Virus record (IMG/VR): IMGVR_UViG_3300050026_000282
Location: 1 to 13,230 of that record
DNA from: a virus
Taxonomy: Duplodnaviria > Heunggongvirae > Uroviricota > Caudoviricetes
Strand: one strand, 5' to 3'
Length of the DNA stretch: 13,230 bases
Shown here: one piece after another, positions 4,351 through 10,800 of the stretch
Numbering within the stretch: the stretch's first letter is position 1
Layout of the letters: the number at the start of each line of letters is the position of its first letter
Translations under genes and position numbers: made by a program
The notes under the pieces: model-generated
Told to the model about the DNA's origin: nothing
The model's input: the letters and a program-made list of their open reading frames with translations, nothing else
The model's database searches: none

Positions 4351-4388
4351 AAAAAAACCTTACGCAACTCATTGCTACGTAAGGCTTT
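4351..4388 (-). terminator. Intrinsic terminator downstream of the displaced tRNA 3' fragment
   Basis: Minus strand CCTTACGTAGC-AATGA-GTTGCGTAAGG-TTTTTTT: 11-bp stem including two G.U pairs, followed by a U7 tract. Confidence 0.75.
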
Positions 4389-4392
4389 AATT

Positions 4393-4440
4393 AGTGGGCG
4401 CACGCAGACTCGAACTGCAGACCTCGTCCTTATCAGGGAC
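4393..4440 (-). repeat. att site: displaced 3' half of tRNA-Ile (anticodon arm to acceptor stem)
   Basis: 48-bp direct repeat of 10725-10772 with 44/48 identity (mismatches at 4405, 4409, 4417, 4419). The exact 21-bp core 4420-4440 = 10752-10772 spans the anticodon loop. Confidence 0.95.
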
Positions 4441-4447
4441 AGGGAAG

Positions 4448-4590
4448 GGGGTTTGACGGGGTTTGACCACGTCCTCTTTTTTGTTGATACGTGTTGTTTT
4501 CCCCGTGGCATCCCGATAGAATGCCATAGCACGGGGTTTGATGGGATTACCCCGGTTTTCCCCCAGCACATAGCACCGGCATAGCACCGG
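4448..4590 (+). promoter_or_regulatory. att arm region: GGGGTTTGA repeats and CATAGCAC arm-type sites
   Basis: GGGGTTTGAC tandem at 4448-4457 and 4458-4467, GGGGTTTGAT at 4533-4542. CATAGCAC at 4525-4532, 4569-4576 and 4580-4587 (11-bp period). Confidence 0.65.
4494..4522 (+). promoter_or_regulatory. Candidate integrase promoter
   Basis: TTGTTT (4494-4499), 17 nt, TAGAAT (4517-4522). SD AGGAG precedes the ATG at 4655. Confidence 0.45.
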
Positions 4591-4654
4591 CAAAAGGGAC
4601 GGGGTTCTAAAAGGCCACCACAACCACCAGGAACACGATAGGAGCGATCCCGCC

Positions 4655-5836
4655 ATGACCATGACTAATCGGTTCACGTTCACTAAGACGAAGTTGGAAG
4701 CACTCACCGCCCCCCAGGACGGCCGCCAGTATTGGTACGATTCGAAACAGGACGGGCTAACCGTCTGCATCACGCGAGCCAACACTCGGACGTTTTACGT
4801 CTACCGCTGGGCCAACGGCCGCCCAGTGCGGATTTTGATTGGGCGTTTCCCCCAAACCTCAGTAGAGGCCGCGCGGAAGGCCGCCCAGTCGCTCATCGGC
4901 GAGATGGCCAAGGGCAATGACCCCCAGGCCGCTCGACAGGCCCGCCGGCATGAGCAAACCGTAGAGGGCCTGTTCGCCTACTGGCTCGAATGTGCCAAGG
5001 CTAGAAAGGCTAAGACCTGGACGGAGGATGAGCACCGCTATCGTCGGTTCCTAAAGCCATGGGCATCAAGGAAACTATCGTCAATCAAAAAGACCGACGT
5101 TCAGGCCCTATTCGCCCGAGTGGCTAAGGACAATGGCCCATGTGCTGCGAACAGGCTGCTGGCGTTAATCAAGGCGATGTTCCACCAGTCGCCCAATATG
5201 GGGTTCGTTGGTGCCGATCCCACCGCCGGCGTGAAGAAGTTTAAGGAGACGAAGAGAGATCGTTTCATTCACGCCGATGAGATGCAGGCTTTCTTCCGTG
5301 CCCTGTTTGCCGAACCCAACGGTACGCTCCGTGACATCCTCTTGGTTGCCTTGCTGAGCGGAGCACGTAAATCCAACGTGATGGCCATGCGGTGGGACGA
5401 AATAGACTTCCACACCACCCTATGGCGAATCGGCGAAACCAAGACCGGTAAGCCGGTTGTGGTGCCGTTGGTTTCGCCTCTTGTGCGCCTACTGCAATCC
5501 CGCCGTGAATGCGCCAACGGTGGGTGGGTGTTTCCAGGACGTGGCAGAACTGGCCATATCACCGAGGTTAAGAGCGCGTGGAAGCGGATCGTCCAGGCGG
5601 CAAAGCTAACGGACTGCCGGCCGCATGATTTACGCAGAACTATTGCATCCTGGATGGCAATCGCGGGAAATGGGCTGCCACTTATCGGTGCTCTACTCGG
5701 CCATTCGCAGCCGGGCTCGACGGCGATTTACGCGAGGCTGAGCACCGGTCCCGTCCGCATTGCCGCCGAATCGGCAAGCAGTGCGATCCTTGAAGCTGGC
5801 GGCGTGAAGCTACTCGGCCACAATCCAGAGAAGTGA
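4655..5836 (+). CDS. int: Tyrosine recombinase/integrase with N-terminal arm-binding domain (P4-like), 393 aa
   Basis: N-terminal WYDSKQDGLTVCITRANTRTFYVYRWANGRPVRILIGRFP (Arm-DNA-bind_3-like). Catalytic motifs SGARKSN, ETKTG, HDLRRT, LLGH and TAIYA. Confidence 0.96.
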   Translation: MTMTNRFTFTKTKLEALTAPQDGRQYWYDSKQDGLTVCITRANTRTFYVYRWANGRPVRILIGRFPQTSVEAARKAAQSLIGEMAKGNDPQAARQARRHEQTVEGLFAYWLECAKARKAKTWTEDEHRYRRFLKPWASRKLSSIKKTDVQALFARVAKDNGPCAANRLLALIKAMFHQSPNMGFVGADPTAGVKKFKETKRDRFIHADEMQAFFRALFAEPNGTLRDILLVALLSGARKSNVMAMRWDEIDFHTTLWRIGETKTGKPVVVPLVSPLVRLLQSRRECANGGWVFPGRGRTGHITEVKSAWKRIVQAAKLTDCRPHDLRRTIASWMAIAGNGLPLIGALLGHSQPGSTAIYARLSTGPVRIAAESASSAILEAGGVKLLGHNPEK

Positions 5837-6285
5837 ACATGGCAACGGAAGAAGACAAAGAAACTGTCCGCCGCATTGCTGGCATAGCCGAGTTCGGGAA
5901 AGACCTCCCGAGTGACAGTCTCAGCAGTAGCGCATGCGGAGAAGCCGCGAAGGTGTCAAAGGCCGTTCAGGCCGGCGACATCGACGCCGCAGTGCGATGG
6001 GCATTTGAGTGCGGCTACAAACTCGGCAAGTGCTGTGAGTTGGTACACAGGCCCGCCCTAGAAGCGCTCGACAAACGATTGCAGAACGAAAAGAAGAAGG
6101 TCAAGGCGATGGTGGATATTACCAGCACGCCGGCCGAATTGCGGGAGAAAGCGCTCGCGGAATACGACAGACTGCAACGAGAAGGCTATGGAAAGACCTA
6201 CTCGAAAGAGCAGGTCGCAAACAAATACACCATCGGCGTAAGATCGTTAGAGCGTTTTCTGGGGCAGCGATCCGCCAAACTATAA
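5833..6285 (+). CDS. Hypothetical protein with a C-terminal HTH-like motif, 150 aa (ATG alternative at 5839)
   Basis: GTGA overlap with the int stop. The C-terminus SKEQVANKYTIGVRSLERFL has helix-turn-helix spacing. Confidence 0.7.
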   Translation: MNMATEEDKETVRRIAGIAEFGKDLPSDSLSSSACGEAAKVSKAVQAGDIDAAVRWAFECGYKLGKCCELVHRPALEALDKRLQNEKKKVKAMVDITSTPAELREKALAEYDRLQREGYGKTYSKEQVANKYTIGVRSLERFLGQRSAKL

Positions 6286-6357
6286 GTCTGGCGAATCGCC
6301 TACGGAGGTTGACGGTAAGATACTTGTGTTGACTCTAACCTTCACGACCAACACAAG
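6267..6357. promoter_or_regulatory. Two inverted repeats between the HTH gene and xis/alpA
   Basis: GCGATCCGCCAAA / TCTGGCGAATCGC (6267-6279 / 6287-6299, 11/13) around the stop codon. CTTGTGTTG / CAACACAAG (6323-6331 / 6349-6357, perfect) abuts the SD AAGGA. Confidence 0.5.
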
Positions 6358-6366
6358 GATTTACCG

Positions 6367-6576
6367 ATGGCTACCGCAATTCTTCCCGCCTCCAATCTTT
6401 TGACTCGGCAGCAAGCGGCCGAGTTCCTACGCGTCAAAACTCAGACACTCGCGGCCTGGAAAACGAATCAGCGATACCACCTTCCCGTGGTCAAAGTTGG
6501 TTCGCTCGTCCGCTACAAATTGGCGGACCTGGAAAAGTTTCTGACGGAGCGAACGGTGGGCACCGCCGCTGAATAG
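6367..6576 (+). CDS. AlpA/excisionase-like HTH_17 DNA-binding protein, 69 aa
   Basis: LLTRQQAAEFLRVKTQTLAAW...LPVVKVGSLVRYKLADLEKFL is a classic Xis/AlpA wHTH pattern. SD AAGGA is present. Confidence 0.92.
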   Translation: MATAILPASNLLTRQQAAEFLRVKTQTLAAWKTNQRYHLPVVKVGSLVRYKLADLEKFLTERTVGTAAE

Positions 6577-6580
6577 GATC

Positions 6581-6811
6581 ATGTCGATGCCCAACGCATT
6601 GCTCCCCAGGCCGTGGCGATATTCGCGGCGATGCCCTATCTGCCGACGTGGCGGCTGTATCGTCGCCGGTCCCTCTGCCGTGGCCGCTGTATGCGTCCAC
6701 ACCGAGAGCAAGCAGCGTATCGGCACCATCGGCTGGTTGCATGTGCTGGACAATGGCGGCCCGCTATGGTCGTCGTGGCGATGCAGTTTGCAGCGACTCG
6801 CGAAAGGATAG
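6581..6811 (+). CDS. Small Zn-binding protein resembling a primase N-terminal Zn domain, 76 aa
   Basis: CPICRRGGC...AAVCVHTES...GWLHVL has CxxC-x4-C-x11-C plus a GWLH motif, and starts 4 nt after the xis stop. Confidence 0.65.
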   Translation: MSMPNALLPRPWRYSRRCPICRRGGCIVAGPSAVAAVCVHTESKQRIGTIGWLHVLDNGGPLWSSWRCSLQRLAKG

Positions 6812-6820
6812 CAAAGAAAA

Positions 6821-6853
6821 ACCCCGGCGTTGGTCGGCAAAACCCGCCGGGGT
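6821..6853. terminator. GC-rich hairpin preceded by an A-tract (terminator-like on the minus strand)
   Basis: ACCCCGGCG (6821-6829) / CGCCGGGGT (6845-6853). AAAGAAAA lies 5' of it and the rep SD (AAGGAAG) immediately 3'. Confidence 0.5.
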
Positions 6854-6869
6854 AAAGGAAGATCGACAC

Positions 6870-7808
6870 GTGAATGATACCACAAAACCAAGTAAGAATG
6901 GCACCCCCAAAACAGTACTGGATGGAGTCCAGCTTGATACCCCCTCTATCAGTAGTGTAGGGAGTCCACGAGGACTTAGATACTTAGAAGACTATAAAGG
7001 ACTTGGAAGACTGAGAGAGACTGAGAGAGACTCCCAAGGTGTGCCTGACGGCACTGCGCGCTCTCTCTTTGACCTTCCATGGGAAGACTTTCTCGGCAAG
7101 GCAATCGACGCGACGAGAGATCACCTCGACAGCATCGAAGCCGACGGCGACTACACCACCGCATGGCAGACCCAAACGCCGATGTTCCGATTCGCTCACC
7201 TCGTATGGAGCCGGCCAGACTTAGGCCCAGACGCACACCGTCCTGCGGCAGTCTTCACCAGAATCGAAAGCACGTTCAAACAATGGACCACCTACTGCCG
7301 GAAACGCAAAGGACAAGAGCCACCCAACGGATTCACGGGGGACGCGTGGGAGGAGTGGCTCGGCATTTACCGCGAAGATGCCAAGACGGAGTTCCTGACT
7401 CTCTGGCCAAAGTTTCGTTGGCCGGCGAATCAGTCGCCGCTGGAAGCTGCGGTCCTGCTGGCACGCCGGTTGCTTGTAATTCCAACGGACGACATTTGCG
7501 AAAAGCGGATGGTGGAGCGAAACAATCCGACAATTGGGTACTGCTTTTTTTTGAGCGTCGCCGGGCACCTGCAAGTCATGCTCGGCGACCAGCCGATCTT
7601 TCTTCCGCAAGACGACCTTGCGAAACTGCTGCACGTGCAGGGTCGCACCATATCACGATGGCGGTCATGGGCGGTAGAAGATGGGATGCTACGTCAGACG
7701 GAGCCACCAGGCCGCCGACGGGCAGCACGGTACCGTTTCGATATTTCCCGATGGGATGCGCTCGCCAAGAAAGCTTCACCAGGAACTGCGGAGGGATTTG
7801 CTAAGTGA
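6870..7808 (+). CDS. Putative replication initiator with a C-terminal winged HTH, 312 aa from GTG 6870 (frame open from 6648)
   Basis: SD AAGGAAG precedes GTG 6870. The C-terminus FLPQDDLAKLLHVQGRTISRWRSWAVEDGMLRQTE...RRAARYRF is a wHTH with wing. It follows xis and the Zn domain and has internal repeats. No Walker A, TOPRIM or AEP motif seen. Confidence 0.6.
   Translation: MNDTTKPSKNGTPKTVLDGVQLDTPSISSVGSPRGLRYLEDYKGLGRLRETERDSQGVPDGTARSLFDLPWEDFLGKAIDATRDHLDSIEADGDYTTAWQTQTPMFRFAHLVWSRPDLGPDAHRPAAVFTRIESTFKQWTTYCRKRKGQEPPNGFTGDAWEEWLGIYREDAKTEFLTLWPKFRWPANQSPLEAAVLLARRLLVIPTDDICEKRMVERNNPTIGYCFFLSVAGHLQVMLGDQPIFLPQDDLAKLLHVQGRTISRWRSWAVEDGMLRQTEPPGRRRAARYRFDISRWDALAKKASPGTAEGFAK
6960..7035 (+). 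repeat. Iteron-like array inside the rep-like gene (candidate origin)
   Basis: Seven (G/T)ACT-anchored units with ACT at 6974, 6982, 6991, 7001, 7010, 7020 and 7030, including exact GACTGAGAGA x2 (7009-7028), bracketed by inverted GGGAGTC / GACTCCC. Confidence 0.6.
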
Positions 7809-7984
7809 GCACGACAATCAAGGCATCCCCCGAGCGGTTTAACATCGTTCTCACAGCGATGCCCGATCGGAGCGGCGTTCCGGCTGTAATCCGATTGCGC
7901 CATTTCCTTAAGCAAGCACTGCGATCCTACGGGTTAAGATGCCAAGAGATCAAACGATCGGAAGGGAAAGCCAATGAGCGATAA
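7805..7984 (+). CDS. Small hypothetical protein (59 aa), absent from the ORF track
   Basis: My translation is MSTTIKASPERFNIVLTAMPDRSGVPAVIRLRHFLKQALRSYGLRCQEIKRSEGKANER. It has a GTGA overlap with the rep stop, overlaps the next ATG, and fills the gap exactly. Confidence 0.7.
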   Translation: MSTTIKASPERFNIVLTAMPDRSGVPAVIRLRHFLKQALRSYGLRCQEIKRSEGKANER

Positions 7985-8285
7985 TCAGCCGCCAACTACC
8001 GATTCTGACGGTGGCGACCGCGATCCGCGTGGCCGATTCGCCCCTGGCAATCACGCCTCTCATGGGAACGTGGCGGCACGCAAAGCGGCACGCTGCCGAG
8101 CGAAGCTGTTCAACGCCGTTTCGGTGGCGGACTTCCAGGCGATCGTCAAGACGGTGGTGGGCCTGGCAAAGGGTGGCGAAGGGTGGGCCGTCAAACTTTT
8201 GTTTTCGTATCTGCTTGGCGATCCGCTCCCCGCAGACGTGACCGAGAGGCTAGACAATTTAGAAGCAAAAATAGGAGGCCAATAG
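7974..8285 (+). CDS. DUF5681-like / terminase small subunit-like protein, 103 aa
   Basis: N-terminal RDPRGRFAPGN..HGN motif, a helical middle (LAKGGEGWAVKLLFSYLLG) and a C-terminal D.TERLDNLE coil. The TerS role is inference. Confidence 0.6.
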   Translation: MSDNQPPTTDSDGGDRDPRGRFAPGNHASHGNVAARKAARCRAKLFNAVSVADFQAIVKTVVGLAKGGEGWAVKLLFSYLLGDPLPADVTERLDNLEAKIGGQ

Positions 8286-8288
8286 ATC

Positions 8289-8657
8289 GTGGCAACAATT
8301 GAAACCCGGCTAGCCAAACTCGAAACCACAACCGCGAAATCGTGGGAGGGTTCCTCCGACCGAGAGGCAATGCTGAATAACATTTACTGGTTACGAGTAA
8401 TGGACACATTCACTATCGCGGATTGGCCTTGCCAGGTCGGCCAGCAACGAAGTCGGCCAGCACCGCCGGCCCGCAGCGGCGACACTCGCGTGGATGAGCA
8501 GCGACAGCAGCTATTTGACGCCGAAATGAGATCGTACGATTTTGAAAGTGAAGTGCTGGATAATCGAGAGCAGTTTGAACGCGATCTAAAATCCTACCAG
8601 GAAACGGACGCGTGGAAGAGTTGGTATCAAGGAAACACCCCAGCAGCAGGCTGGTAA
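8289..8657 (+). CDS. Hypothetical protein, 122 aa
   Basis: Strong SD AGGAGG before the GTG. It begins IETRLAKLE and is tightly packed in the operon. Confidence 0.75.
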   Translation: MATIETRLAKLETTTAKSWEGSSDREAMLNNIYWLRVMDTFTIADWPCQVGQQRSRPAPPARSGDTRVDEQRQQLFDAEMRSYDFESEVLDNREQFERDLKSYQETDAWKSWYQGNTPAAGW

Positions 8658-8690
8658 CTTTTTTCAGCCACCCTAAAAAGGAATGATCGA

Positions 8691-9545
8691 ATGAGTTGCA
8701 TTGCAGAAGTCATGACGACTTTGGCCACAGAGAAGGCGGCCGCCGAAAATCGCTATCGTGAGTTGGTTCAGGCCGTGGCCCGCGGCACTTCGCCAACGGC
8801 CGATGACCTAGTGACGCTGGCGACGACCGGCAAGTCGCTGGACGCCTTCCAGACTGATTGCGAGGATGCAGGGGCAGCGGAGGCAGACCAGGCCGCCCGG
8901 CGGGAAGCGATCCGCCTTCAAGGCAACGAACAGCGGACCGCCCGCGAAACCCTGGCACGCGTAAACAATGAGCTCGCCATCGTGGAAGTAATCGGCGGCC
9001 GAGTCGTTACCTCGATTGCCGAAGCCACTCGCAGCGTGCGCGACAAATGGCAGGAGTACTTGGGCCAGACATTCGCGGAAGCCCGGGTCCTGCAAGGCCA
9101 ACCAAACCGGTGGGGGCTCGAAGGACACCGCAAGTTTGTCCGCGACCTGGCAGCCGAAATCGAGAACGCCTGGAAATGCTTGCCTCACAGGGACAACGCG
9201 GATTTTTCGGGACAGAAAGCGCACATCCAAAGCGAGGAGCGGCGACTGGAGGCGGCGAAGGCCGCGGCAACCGAGTGGAAAGTGAAGGCAGATTTGCCGA
9301 AAGCCCCCGAGGCCGCTGACGTGTTCCAAACTGGAATTGCCGCCGGCATCACGACGCTGCTGGGTTGTGCCCCTCATTTGTTTTGGATGGTGGCGGCCGC
9401 CTTCCAACAAATATGCGAGGAACGCACAAGGGAAGAAAAGGTGCTCGCGGAGGGAAAAAAAGAGCTCGACGCTCGACTCGCTAATTGCGACAGGCTGCTG
9501 GCTTCGATCGACGCGAGGGAGGCGGCACGAGCCAACAAACCATGA
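8691..9545 (+). CDS. Alpha-helical coiled-coil hypothetical protein, 284 aa
   Basis: SD AAGGA. Ala/Glu/Arg/Lys-rich heptad-like segments (e.g. EERTREEKVLAEGKKELDARLANCDRLLASIDAREAARA). No capsid or enzyme motif recognised. Confidence 0.8.
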   Translation: MSCIAEVMTTLATEKAAAENRYRELVQAVARGTSPTADDLVTLATTGKSLDAFQTDCEDAGAAEADQAARREAIRLQGNEQRTARETLARVNNELAIVEVIGGRVVTSIAEATRSVRDKWQEYLGQTFAEARVLQGQPNRWGLEGHRKFVRDLAAEIENAWKCLPHRDNADFSGQKAHIQSEERRLEAAKAAATEWKVKADLPKAPEAADVFQTGIAAGITTLLGCAPHLFWMVAAAFQQICEERTREEKVLAEGKKELDARLANCDRLLASIDAREAARANKP

Positions 9546-9547
9546 CA

Positions 9548-9647
9548 CCGACCGCGCGGTTTAGTGATTTTGCCGCGATGGTCGGGTTTTGTGCCGCGGC
9601 CGTACGGGTCTCGATCTTCCGCCTGGCCGGCCGCGGCTGTTTTTTGT
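9548..9647 (+). terminator. Two consecutive hairpins each followed by T-rich tracts
   Basis: CCGACC(G)CGCGG / CCGCG(AT)GGTCGG (9548-9585) followed by GTTTT, and GCCGCGGCC / GGCCGCGGC (9593-9601 / 9629-9637) followed by TGTTTTTTGTT. Confidence 0.45.
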
Positions 9648-9679
9648 TCAACCATTGTTCCAAAGTTAGGAGTCGAGTT

Positions 9680-10180
9680 ATGAAAATGCACGGACACGCC
9701 GTAGAGTTTTGCCGAGGTTTCGCCAGTCACGGATTTGAGTCGATGACCGACCTTTCCGAGCCGGCGGCGGCGGGCCGAGCCACCACGCCGGGACGGAAAT
9801 CAAAGCAGCCGCGGCGATTGGCGAAGCGGTTGCGATACCACAAAAAAGCCGCGAAAAGAGCCGCGGCCTTGCAAACGCTGTTGCGGCGGAAGAAGGCCAC
9901 CGAGAGCCGAGCGGCGTGGAATGATCCCGTGGTGGGAATCAAACTGCTTTACGCTGGCTCTTCAATGGAAGCGGCCAGCATCATTTCCGCTCATGCGGGG
10001 TCGAAGGGCGGAAAGACGACCAGGTGGGACAATCGGGAAACTGCCCTGGCCGCGTTAATGGGATGGACGCCCGCACCGGCGACGCCCGCAACGATGGCAC
10101 GTCGGGGCGTCGAATCGAAGGGGCGGACCGTGAAGGCCGTGGGCCTGTTCGCCACGGACTACGCCACGACCGGCTATTGA
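9680..10180 (+). CDS. Basic hypothetical protein, 166 aa (alternative coupled start at 9542)
   Basis: SD AGGAG before ATG 9680. Contains a very basic stretch RKSKQPRRLAKRLRYHKKAAKR...RRKK. Confidence 0.65.
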   Translation: MKMHGHAVEFCRGFASHGFESMTDLSEPAAAGRATTPGRKSKQPRRLAKRLRYHKKAAKRAAALQTLLRRKKATESRAAWNDPVVGIKLLYAGSSMEAASIISAHAGSKGGKTTRWDNRETALAALMGWTPAPATPATMARRGVESKGRTVKAVGLFATDYATTGY

Positions 10181-10299
10181 ACGCCTACGTTCGATTCTGA
10201 GGCATGGAAGGGCCAAGGGGTATCGAACGTCGACCAGGGCATCCCGGACGCAACAGCGGGCCACCGGCGGGCCGGCTTGCGAGTTGAGAGGTTGAACCG

Positions 10300-10494
10300 A
10301 TGAATAGACCTACCGGCCCGTGCATCCTATGCCACCGTGCCCCAGGCCGCGGACAATGGGAATTATGCCCCGACTGCCGGGCCCGCCTTGCCCAGCGATC
10401 CGCCCAGCACCAGGCCGAGCAGCACGTCAAGGCTACCAGGCGATACGACCACAGCAAAAGGAAACATGCCTTTGATGGCACCGGGGGGAGATGA
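10300..10494 (+). CDS. Small C4 zinc-finger protein, 64 aa
   Basis: CILC-x11-CPDC. SD-like GAGAGG upstream. It is the last gene before the terminator. Confidence 0.6.
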   Translation: MNRPTGPCILCHRAPGRGQWELCPDCRARLAQRSAQHQAEQHVKATRRYDHSKRKHAFDGTGGR

Positions 10495-10550
10495 TCCAGT
10501 CTCGGGGCGGTTCACCATGACCCCACCCACCCCCGGCATTTTTCAGCGAA

Positions 10551-10591
10551 GCGGATGGTCGTCCGGATCGGCCATCCGCCCTTTCTTTTCT
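10551..10591 (+). terminator. Intrinsic terminator closing the element's operon
   Basis: GCGGATGGTCG / CGGCCATCCGC stem (10551-10579, one G.U pair) followed by CCTTTCTTTTCT. Confidence 0.65.
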
Positions 10592-10634
10592 CCCCCGCTT
10601 CTAAAGGGGTTTTCTGCCCTGTTTTTTGTCGTGG

Positions 10635-10667
10635 CATAGCACGCCCATAGCACCAGCGGCATACCCC
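10635..10667 (+). promoter_or_regulatory. CATAGCAC arm-type sites at the tRNA-proximal end of the element
   Basis: CATAGCAC at 10635-10642 and 10646-10653 (11-bp period), plus degenerate CATACCCC at 10660-10667. This is the same motif as at 4525-4587. Confidence 0.7.
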
Positions 10668-10680
10668 ACCAGCAAGGCAT

Positions 10681-10720
10681 AAGAAAAAGCCTTCCCTAAC
10701 TCATTGCTAGGAAAGGCTTT
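10681..10720 (-). terminator. Element-supplied intrinsic terminator of tRNA-Ile
   Basis: Minus strand AAAGCCTTTCCTAGC-AATGA-GTTAGGGAAGGCTTT-TTCTT: 15-bp stem with two G.U pairs. Confidence 0.8.
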
Positions 10721-10726
10721 ATCGAG

Positions 10727-10800
10727 TGGGCGCACGAAGATTCGAACTTCGGACCTCGTCCTTATCAGGGACGCGCTCTAACCAACTGAGCTATGCGCCC
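10727..10800 (-). tRNA. trnI: tRNA-Ile (anticodon GAT), 74 nt, CCA not encoded
   Basis: GGGCGCA-TAGCTCAGTTGGTTAGAGC-G-CGTCC-CTGATAA-GGACG-AGGTC-CGAAG-TTCGAAT-CTTCG-TGCGCCC-A folds as a complete cloverleaf. Confidence 0.98.

Follow-up and report, generated by a model that had tools for sequence, protein, structure and literature searches.

Phage-inducible chromosomal islands (PICIs) were found mostly in Proteobacteria and Firmicutes by a SatelliteFinder survey, with a median length of 9.5 kb and no mention of planctomycetes (PMC10085698). The model for the minimalist PICMIs counts PF12728 as AlpA (PMC10803314). Among marine VEIMEs (integrative mobile elements packaged in virions) are capsid-less elements that have TerS together with unusual replication genes, and planctomycetes are not mentioned for these either (PMC9618062). 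Replication of PLE, a satellite of Vibrio cholerae, relies on an initiator without primase and helicase (PMC7145576), and ColE2 Rep unwinds its origin using a PriCT-1 plus helix-turn-helix (HTH) module (PMC5862659). A literature search of incomplete coverage found no paper pairing phage satellites with planctomycetes. Here we describe a 6,332-bp island in a 13,230-nucleotide stretch of DNA (the window), the first part of the linear, IMG/VR-type virus record IMGVR_UViG_3300050026_000282 (77,230 bp, about 75% complete). It is complete and integrated in a tRNA gene, its relatives sit at other tRNAs, its conserved genes are under purifying selection, and it has a TerS homolog and lacks virion genes. 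We read it, with moderate confidence, as a PICI-like phage satellite, probably of a planctomycete, with a primase-less initiator. Such a variant of the known satellites is most likely undescribed.

The island compared with described satellites

The main features of the island are as follows; loci compared with it carry L numbers.

4354-4388, minus strand: hairpin outside the left att site, of the same type as the island's own hairpin; probable scar of an earlier island
4393-4440, minus strand: att site on the integrase side, formed by the displaced tRNA-Ile 3' part (core of 21 exactly matching bp, 4420-4440)
4525-4591, plus strand: three CATAGCAC arm-type repeats, presumed arm function
4655-5836, plus strand: tyrosine integrase (int), 393 aa (Arm-DNA-bind_3 and Phage_integrase; catalytic motifs present)
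6367-6576, plus strand: HTH_17 excisionase/AlpA-like regulator (xis), 69 aa (PF12728, E 1.8e-7; phrog_66)
6581-6811, plus strand: Zn-ribbon-like stand-alone open reading frame (ORF), 76 aa (iterative hidden Markov model (HMM) search to L068 and L021; Toprim matches)
6870-7808, plus strand: replication gene (rep), putative primase-less initiator, 312 aa (linker, helical domain, C-terminal winged helix)
6975-7035, plus strand: GACT array with a 9-10-bp period, candidate iteron/origin inside rep
7805-7984, plus strand: conserved 59-aa ORF, directly 3' of the replication gene in several islands
7974-8285, plus strand: DUF5681-like putative small terminase, 103 aa
10635-10657, plus strand: two CATAGCAC arm-type repeats, putative arm sites
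10686-10720, minus strand: element-borne hairpin/terminator, downstream of the tRNA
10726-10800, minus strand: complete tRNA-Ile(GAT), the integration site

The island is inserted in tRNA-Ile(GAT) and bounded by an 89-nt direct repeat (4352-4440 versus 10684-10772; identity 85%, offset 6,332 bp). The tRNA portions of this repeat (4393-4440 versus 10725-10772) are identical at 44/48 positions and contain the exact 21-bp core, and the right att copy is the 3' half of the complete tRNA-Ile(GAT) on the minus strand. The CATAGCAC repeats lie at 4525, 4569, 4580, 10635 and 10646, with no other copy within the element. The repeat, its core and the CATAGCAC copies at both ends bear out the intact att sites and arms of the preliminary description, a model's reading of the letters.

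Eleven ORFs lie between the att sites, all on the plus strand, with gaps in order of -4, 81, 4, 58, -4, -11, 3, 33, 134 and 119 nt. The number and orientation agree with the preliminary description, whereas its tight coupling applies to the middle block only, given the gaps of 81, 58, 134 and 119 nt, and its single operon is putative. Clear profiles were found only for the integrase, which matches PF00589 and PF13356, and for the HTH_17 excisionase; the excisionase has a dN/dS (ratio of nonsynonymous to synonymous change) of about 0.35 and no PF05930 match. No Pfam or PHROG profile for capsid, portal, TerL, relaxase, primase or helicase matched any of the ORFs, as had been supposed.

PICIs of the SaPI type, which have their own TerS, show the same order of integrase, AlpA/Xis-like HTH gene, replication slot and TerS-like gene (PMC10085698), and the island is likewise without TerL, portal and tail genes. 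Two of the PICI hallmarks, an integrase with att repeats and an AlpA/MerR/Stl regulator (here PF12728 HTH_17, phrog_66), are present, but in place of a primase-replicase there are only the C-terminal half of a Prim-Pol and a Zn ribbon. The island also differs in its putative TerS, which is DUF5681-like and does not match a Pfam terminase profile, and in its size of 6.3 kb versus the 9.5-kb median. It has no match to a capsid-morphogenesis profile, several of its ORFs being without assigned function.

PICMIs of Vibrionaceae (PMC10803314) share with the island a length of about 6 kb, a tyrosine integrase gene overlapped by 4 nt by the next gene, a PF12728-type regulator and the lack of a recognised capsid remodelling gene. 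Unlike PICMIs, the island has no DUF3987/DUF5906 primase and carries a TerS-like gene. PICMIs sit next to fis, whereas the island and its relatives are in tRNA-Ile, tRNA-Ala and tRNA-Lys.

The capsid, portal and TerL of the capsid-forming cf-PICIs are absent, with no ORF to spare for them between the att sites; Psu, Delta, Sid and the alpha primase-helicase of P4-like satellites are unmatched in Pfam and PHROGs. PLE (PMC7145576) resembles the island in that replication would use an initiator free of primase and helicase together with borrowed enzymes, but it is 18 kb long and has a large serine recombinase in contrast to the tyrosine integrase here. Its RepA_N initiator has an N-terminal winged HTH (wHTH) and a non-coding origin, whereas the island's wHTH is C-terminal and Prim-Pol-related, with the repeats inside the gene. 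VEIMEs and tycheposon-like marine elements (PMC9618062) are also small, integrative and capsid-less, with integrase, excisionase and TerS homologs, and some lack known replication genes; VEIMEs are defined by their presence in particles, which for the island is a prediction. No relaxase or type IV secretion system genes of conjugative or mobilizable integrative elements were found: Pfam gave no match, and the island has no HUH motif. These feature tests agree with the earlier claim that the element fits none of P4, PICI, cf-PICI, PLE or PICMI exactly.

L012 (5840-12353) is a complete 6,408-bp relative in tRNA-Ala(GGC), located between host genes. Its gene order (int-xis-rep-59aa-TerS-like) matches that of the island, with identities of 44% for int, 41% for xis, 58% for rep, 37% for the 59-aa gene and 65% for the TerS-like gene; its arm repeats are similar, with GTAGCAC copies related to CATAGCAC at both ends. 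L087 (351-6650) is a complete 6,256-bp relative in tRNA-Lys that has int and xis along with the TerS-like gene and the zinc finger at the end. The possibility raised earlier that relatives would reveal a fragment of a larger prophage was checked; both relatives are complete in host DNA with no prophage adjacent, so the island is not a prophage fragment, and an autonomous small integrative element is borne out. The lengths of the complete elements at the three tRNAs (6,332, 6,408 and 6,256 bp) are close despite differing cargo, perhaps through a packaging constraint or by chance.

Among 401 sampled genomes from the phylum of the planctomycete metagenome-assembled genome (MAG) that holds L028, 14 have a homolog of the TerS-like gene and 8 have a rep homolog. 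Of these, eight are within islands of about 4.6-10.5 kb that are located at tRNA or tmRNA genes and have att repeats. What occupies the replication slot varies: a primase-helicase in L067, a DUF3987 gene in L071, an AAA_25 protein in L077, a Toprim primase in L068, or rep; and in L067 and L071 the primase-helicase or DUF3987 gene precedes the 59-aa homolog, which is the slot of rep. The cassette is modular, and rep is not fixed in the family. The fixed int-xis-ZnF-rep-DUF5681 cassette of the preliminary description does not hold, since relatives swap or lack rep and the zinc finger, and its "new family" was too strong a term for one replication variant among broad, modular PICI-like tRNA islands. 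L067 (3760-13629, genome G286) is a tRNA-Arg island with primase-helicase, 59-aa and TerS-like homologs; it also has a 151-aa ORF with a weak tail match (E 0.004) and a 706-aa ORF that is tape-measure-like by eye, with no PHROG match. A single Gemmatales MAG (G004) has seven matches to the TerS-like family.

Putative replication gene and its repeat array

Rep starts at the GTG at 6870, giving 312 aa; its family has no name and comprises 1,122 clusters at 50% identity. In the structure model residues 1-62 are disordered and are followed by a helical domain and a C-terminal winged helix. The family profile matches the C-terminal half of Prim-Pol proteins from planctomycete islands over about 200 positions (E 9e-13 per genome), and PF09250 is confirmed for two of these proteins. 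By this profile homology, rep is a homolog of the helical and winged-helix half of Prim-Pol, without the catalytic domain. A primase domain was found in 0/10 of the long family members scanned, and the window protein has no catalytic domain either. The Prim-Pol fusions of the rep domain are 400-430 aa long; none was found at 859-2450 aa, a searched range that exceeds theirs. The rep core is under purifying selection (dN/dS 0.10-0.20 versus four homologs).

ColE2 Rep, RepE-RepS and the PrimHYQ primases (PMC5862659) have a similar C-terminal helical plus HTH module that belongs to an AEP-type (archaeo-eukaryotic primase) replication protein and is expected to bind and open an origin. Rep differs from ColE2 Rep in having neither an AEP domain nor a Pfam PriCT_1 match, and the homology shown is with Prim-Pol C-termini from planctomycete islands rather than with ColE2 itself. 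Rep has no Pfam match to RepA_N, and the RepA_N structure 4pta (Z 6.9) is tied with many unrelated wHTH proteins. No match to rep was found in GenBank phages or PLSDB plasmids, and scans of IMG/VR gave no close relative of rep, the TerS-like protein or the integrase. A rep-family gene does occur in a tailed-phage contig (L016, 9221-10156), before sigma70_r4, placed much as an early replication gene would be.

The GACT array lies in the linker and is significant in 7/7 close rep homologs, and it is at the domain junction in 3/3 Prim-Pol fusions. Significance was judged against a codon-shuffle null, which for the window row was computed from a start one base out of frame. Synonymous divergence (pS) is 0.29-0.50 in the linker versus 0.62-0.72 in the core, while amino-acid divergence is higher in the linker, as expected for a DNA site; the linker alignments are less certain. 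We infer that the array is an origin or iteron site inside the rep gene. The wHTH fold and the array within its own gene uphold the initiator-type protein with internal repeats that had been described. Given the precedents of ColE2 Rep and PLE, the best reading of rep is a putative origin-binding initiator that borrows its enzymes.

The 76-aa ORF upstream of rep is homologous to a Zn-ribbon-like stretch that island primases have N-terminal to their Toprim domain. It stands alone also in L002, is partial in L004, and has a dN/dS of 0.23.

Putative packaging gene and possible helpers

The 103-aa protein has no Pfam or PHROG profile match of its own, but DUF5681 (PF18932) is found in 11/17 aligned relatives (best E 3.4e-7), and the ESM feature score for DUF5681 is 0.92. 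The DUF5681 label given earlier is therefore reached through relatives and not from the window protein itself. The protein is 43% identical over 76 aa to a gene in a viral contig (L091), where it is followed by TerL (E 3e-97) and then portal (E 7e-35). TerL directly follows the homolog in 7/8 viral loci with a downstream gene scanned, and in two other viral loci a DUF5681-like motif is fused to a larger protein; in L096 (7998-9521) and L097 (7998-9524) such an N-terminal motif is part of a 508-aa protein that is portal-like by eye. Profile-profile comparison gives a probability of 98.4% over 74 columns, and the A5 profile scores 33-100 bits for 6/7 genes in the TerS position versus <=1.5 bits for reversed controls. 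The gene has a dN/dS of 0.25. Its product is likely a small terminase, and the earlier TerS-like assignment stands on the phage gene before TerL and portal and on the profile comparison. GenBank phages gave no match to the protein. In two rep-bearing relatives, L003 and L028, the TerS belongs to Pfam Terminase_4, and their examined DNA yielded no homolog of the 103-aa gene.

As a PICI-like satellite, the island would be excised by Int and Xis as a 6,332-bp circle. The 312-aa protein would bind the array in its own gene and open the origin via its helical and winged-helix module, as the PriCT-HTH of ColE2 Rep does, and it would recruit the primase and helicase of the host or a helper because the island has neither. 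The DUF5681-like TerS would mark element DNA for the TerL of the helper. The element would fill normal-size helper capsids, probably as concatemers, since no capsid-remodelling gene was seen.

Several observations weigh against this interpretation. The wHTH fold of rep matches not initiators alone but also regulators (best Z 7.7, tied), and the array is significant in only 1/11 distant rep homologs. A recognisable rep is missing from L087 and L014, which retain int, xis and the TerS-like gene, and L003, at tRNA-Leu, is frameshifted, so such islands decay or vary. For the DUF5681-like proteins a TerS role is proposed from their gene position and homology. The fold search gave a weak TerS match only (E 0.8) with a weak model (pTM 0.35); the four-copy complex model, with a score of 0.31, speaks for neither side. 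No phage in the analysis was identified as the helper.

Some of these points would also suit a selfish, satellite-derived integrative element that moves passively, by general or lateral transduction, vesicles or transformation, and whose TerS-like protein and Rep act as regulators or phage-interference factors. Fold searches with rep find only generic wHTH proteins, mostly regulators, rep is missing from some relatives, and VEIME-like elements occur also in vesicle fractions (PMC9618062). That rep is homologous to the C-terminal half of Prim-Pol and trades places with primases in one slot argues the other way, as do the phage homologs in the TerS position and the Terminase_4 genes of the two rep-bearing relatives. 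We consider passive movement, and likewise a regulatory or interfering role of the two proteins, unlikely, though the strongest of the alternatives.

A prophage of at least 66 kb extends from 10950 to the record end (77,230) and has a complete complement of head and tail genes. It encodes an integrase and an excisionase as well as TerL, portal, scaffold, major head and tape-measure proteins, and a DNA polymerase and helicase that were recognised by eye. Its integrase points away from the tRNA-Ile 5' end, it has its own TGACACCC repeats, and the far att lies outside the record; from the integrase orientation and these repeats, it may share the tRNA-Ile site. At 24000-26191 there are two more tyrosine-recombinase-like ORFs, possibly an inserted RIT-type element. 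The preliminary description named this neighbour as a possible helper, and the island could be specifically its satellite, integrated at the same tRNA-Ile and packaged by its terminase. The virion genes, and a polymerase and helicase that a primase-less element might borrow, are consistent with this. The prophage TerL, however, is of the phrog_675/phrog_15 class, whereas the TerLs that follow TerS homologs are phrog_979/phrog_2; the prophage, in a record about 75% complete, has no homolog of the 103-aa gene, shares no DNA with the island above chance, and has no counterpart beside L012 and L087. The neighbour is thus improbable as helper, and a phage with a phrog_979/phrog_2-type TerL is more likely. 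L087 has a hairpin of the 4354-4388 type on its element side only, the host side having a different terminator, so the outer-left hairpin is element-derived and therefore the probable scar of an earlier island. This scar makes a shared integration hotspot the best explanation for the adjacency of island and prophage.

The island as a decaying satellite, its primase deleted with a Zn ribbon and a C-terminal fragment left behind and replication lost, is the least probable alternative: both pieces are elsewhere fused to primases and island scars and an IS256 copy adjoin the island, but the primase-less form is a family of 1,122 clusters with no primase domain in the ten long members, purifying selection is strong, the att sites and integrase are intact, and the two pieces derive from different primase types (Toprim versus AEP), which a single deletion cannot explain.

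Accessory genes, genomic setting and meaning

The other features of the island are the following.

5833-6285, plus strand: 150-aa ORF in a variable slot (4-nt overlap with int; no profile match)
8289-8657, plus strand: 122-aa ORF (N-terminal R-h-x-x-h-E-like helix by eye, remainder variable)
8691-9545, plus strand: coiled-coil protein, 284 aa
9680-10180, plus strand: basic ORF, 166 aa, a doubtful gene without a homolog
10300-10494, plus strand: double-CxxC zinc finger, 64 aa (DZR_2, E 0.003)
10551-10579, plus strand: terminator-like hairpin closing the plus-strand genes (consensus match only)

The 150-aa ORF had been called an HTH protein, for which there is no profile support. Homologs of the 59-aa ORF are found in L001, L026, L028, L067, L071 and L088. 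The 122-aa ORF has no homolog by HMM search. By eye, an R-h-x-x-h-E-like start is seen at eight loci in the gene just 3' of the TerS-like gene, and in the island (8241-8320) this coiled-coil motif occurs both in the TerS-like C-terminus (RLDNLE) and in the N-terminus of the next ORF (RLAKLE). The N-terminus of the 284-aa protein has a weak likeness to a 169-aa ORF of L012 (blastp 26%, pairwise E 5e-4, profile E=2); its membership in a coiled-coil family of L001, L067 and L003 was not confirmed as homology and was dropped. Weak tail matches of the 284-aa and 166-aa ORFs (E>=0.005) were rejected as coiled-coil noise. The basic 166-aa ORF of the preliminary description is present, but it may not be a gene, having no homolog in any fetched locus. 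A homolog of the 64-aa zinc finger, 59% identical to it, lies close to the L087 right end. PADLOC gave no defence match of weight in the island, and no defence or metabolic cargo was recognised, so its interest lies in mobile-element biology.

To the left of the island are an IS256 transposase and host genes. This flank also has perfect inverted repeats of 26 bp and 22 bp (1653-1728, 2378-2424) and, on the minus strand at 2033-2374, a transposase-like fragment without a Pfam match. The window sequence is present in peat metagenomes. The closest Atlas clusters of the TerS-like protein are mostly from Planctomycetota, and of the 12 genome loci at which distant rep homologs occur, 5 or 6 belong to planctomycete MAGs. 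Judging from these homologs, the host is probably a planctomycete.

No attP joint was found in Logan contigs of four peat metagenomes, contigs that drop rare variants. In run X1, which may be the source sample, depth is equal over the element (8.8-10.4) and the prophage side (8.3-9.6). These results count neither way as to a circular form. A joint 4589>10685 in this run was rejected as a deletion and most plausibly represents a related element's right arm. At 4589/10685 a depth-12 contig of X1 carries a different right arm beside the same hairpin, its depth matching a second host strain; it may represent a further island, at this tRNA site or one like it.

More tentatively, the island may represent a distinct satellite lineage, in which the origin-binding half of Prim-Pol works independently of catalysis and loads the primase and helicase of helper or host at an in-gene origin, with a DUF5681 small terminase and a length of ~6.3 kb held by concatemer packaging. 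Models that demand a primase or a Pfam terminase profile would miss elements of this kind. The island suggests a testable role for two unnamed families, the 1,122-cluster wHTH family as primase-less initiators and the DUF5681-like proteins as small terminases. If the satellite reading is true, it would be a second route, besides PLE RepA, for satellite replication with borrowed enzymes.

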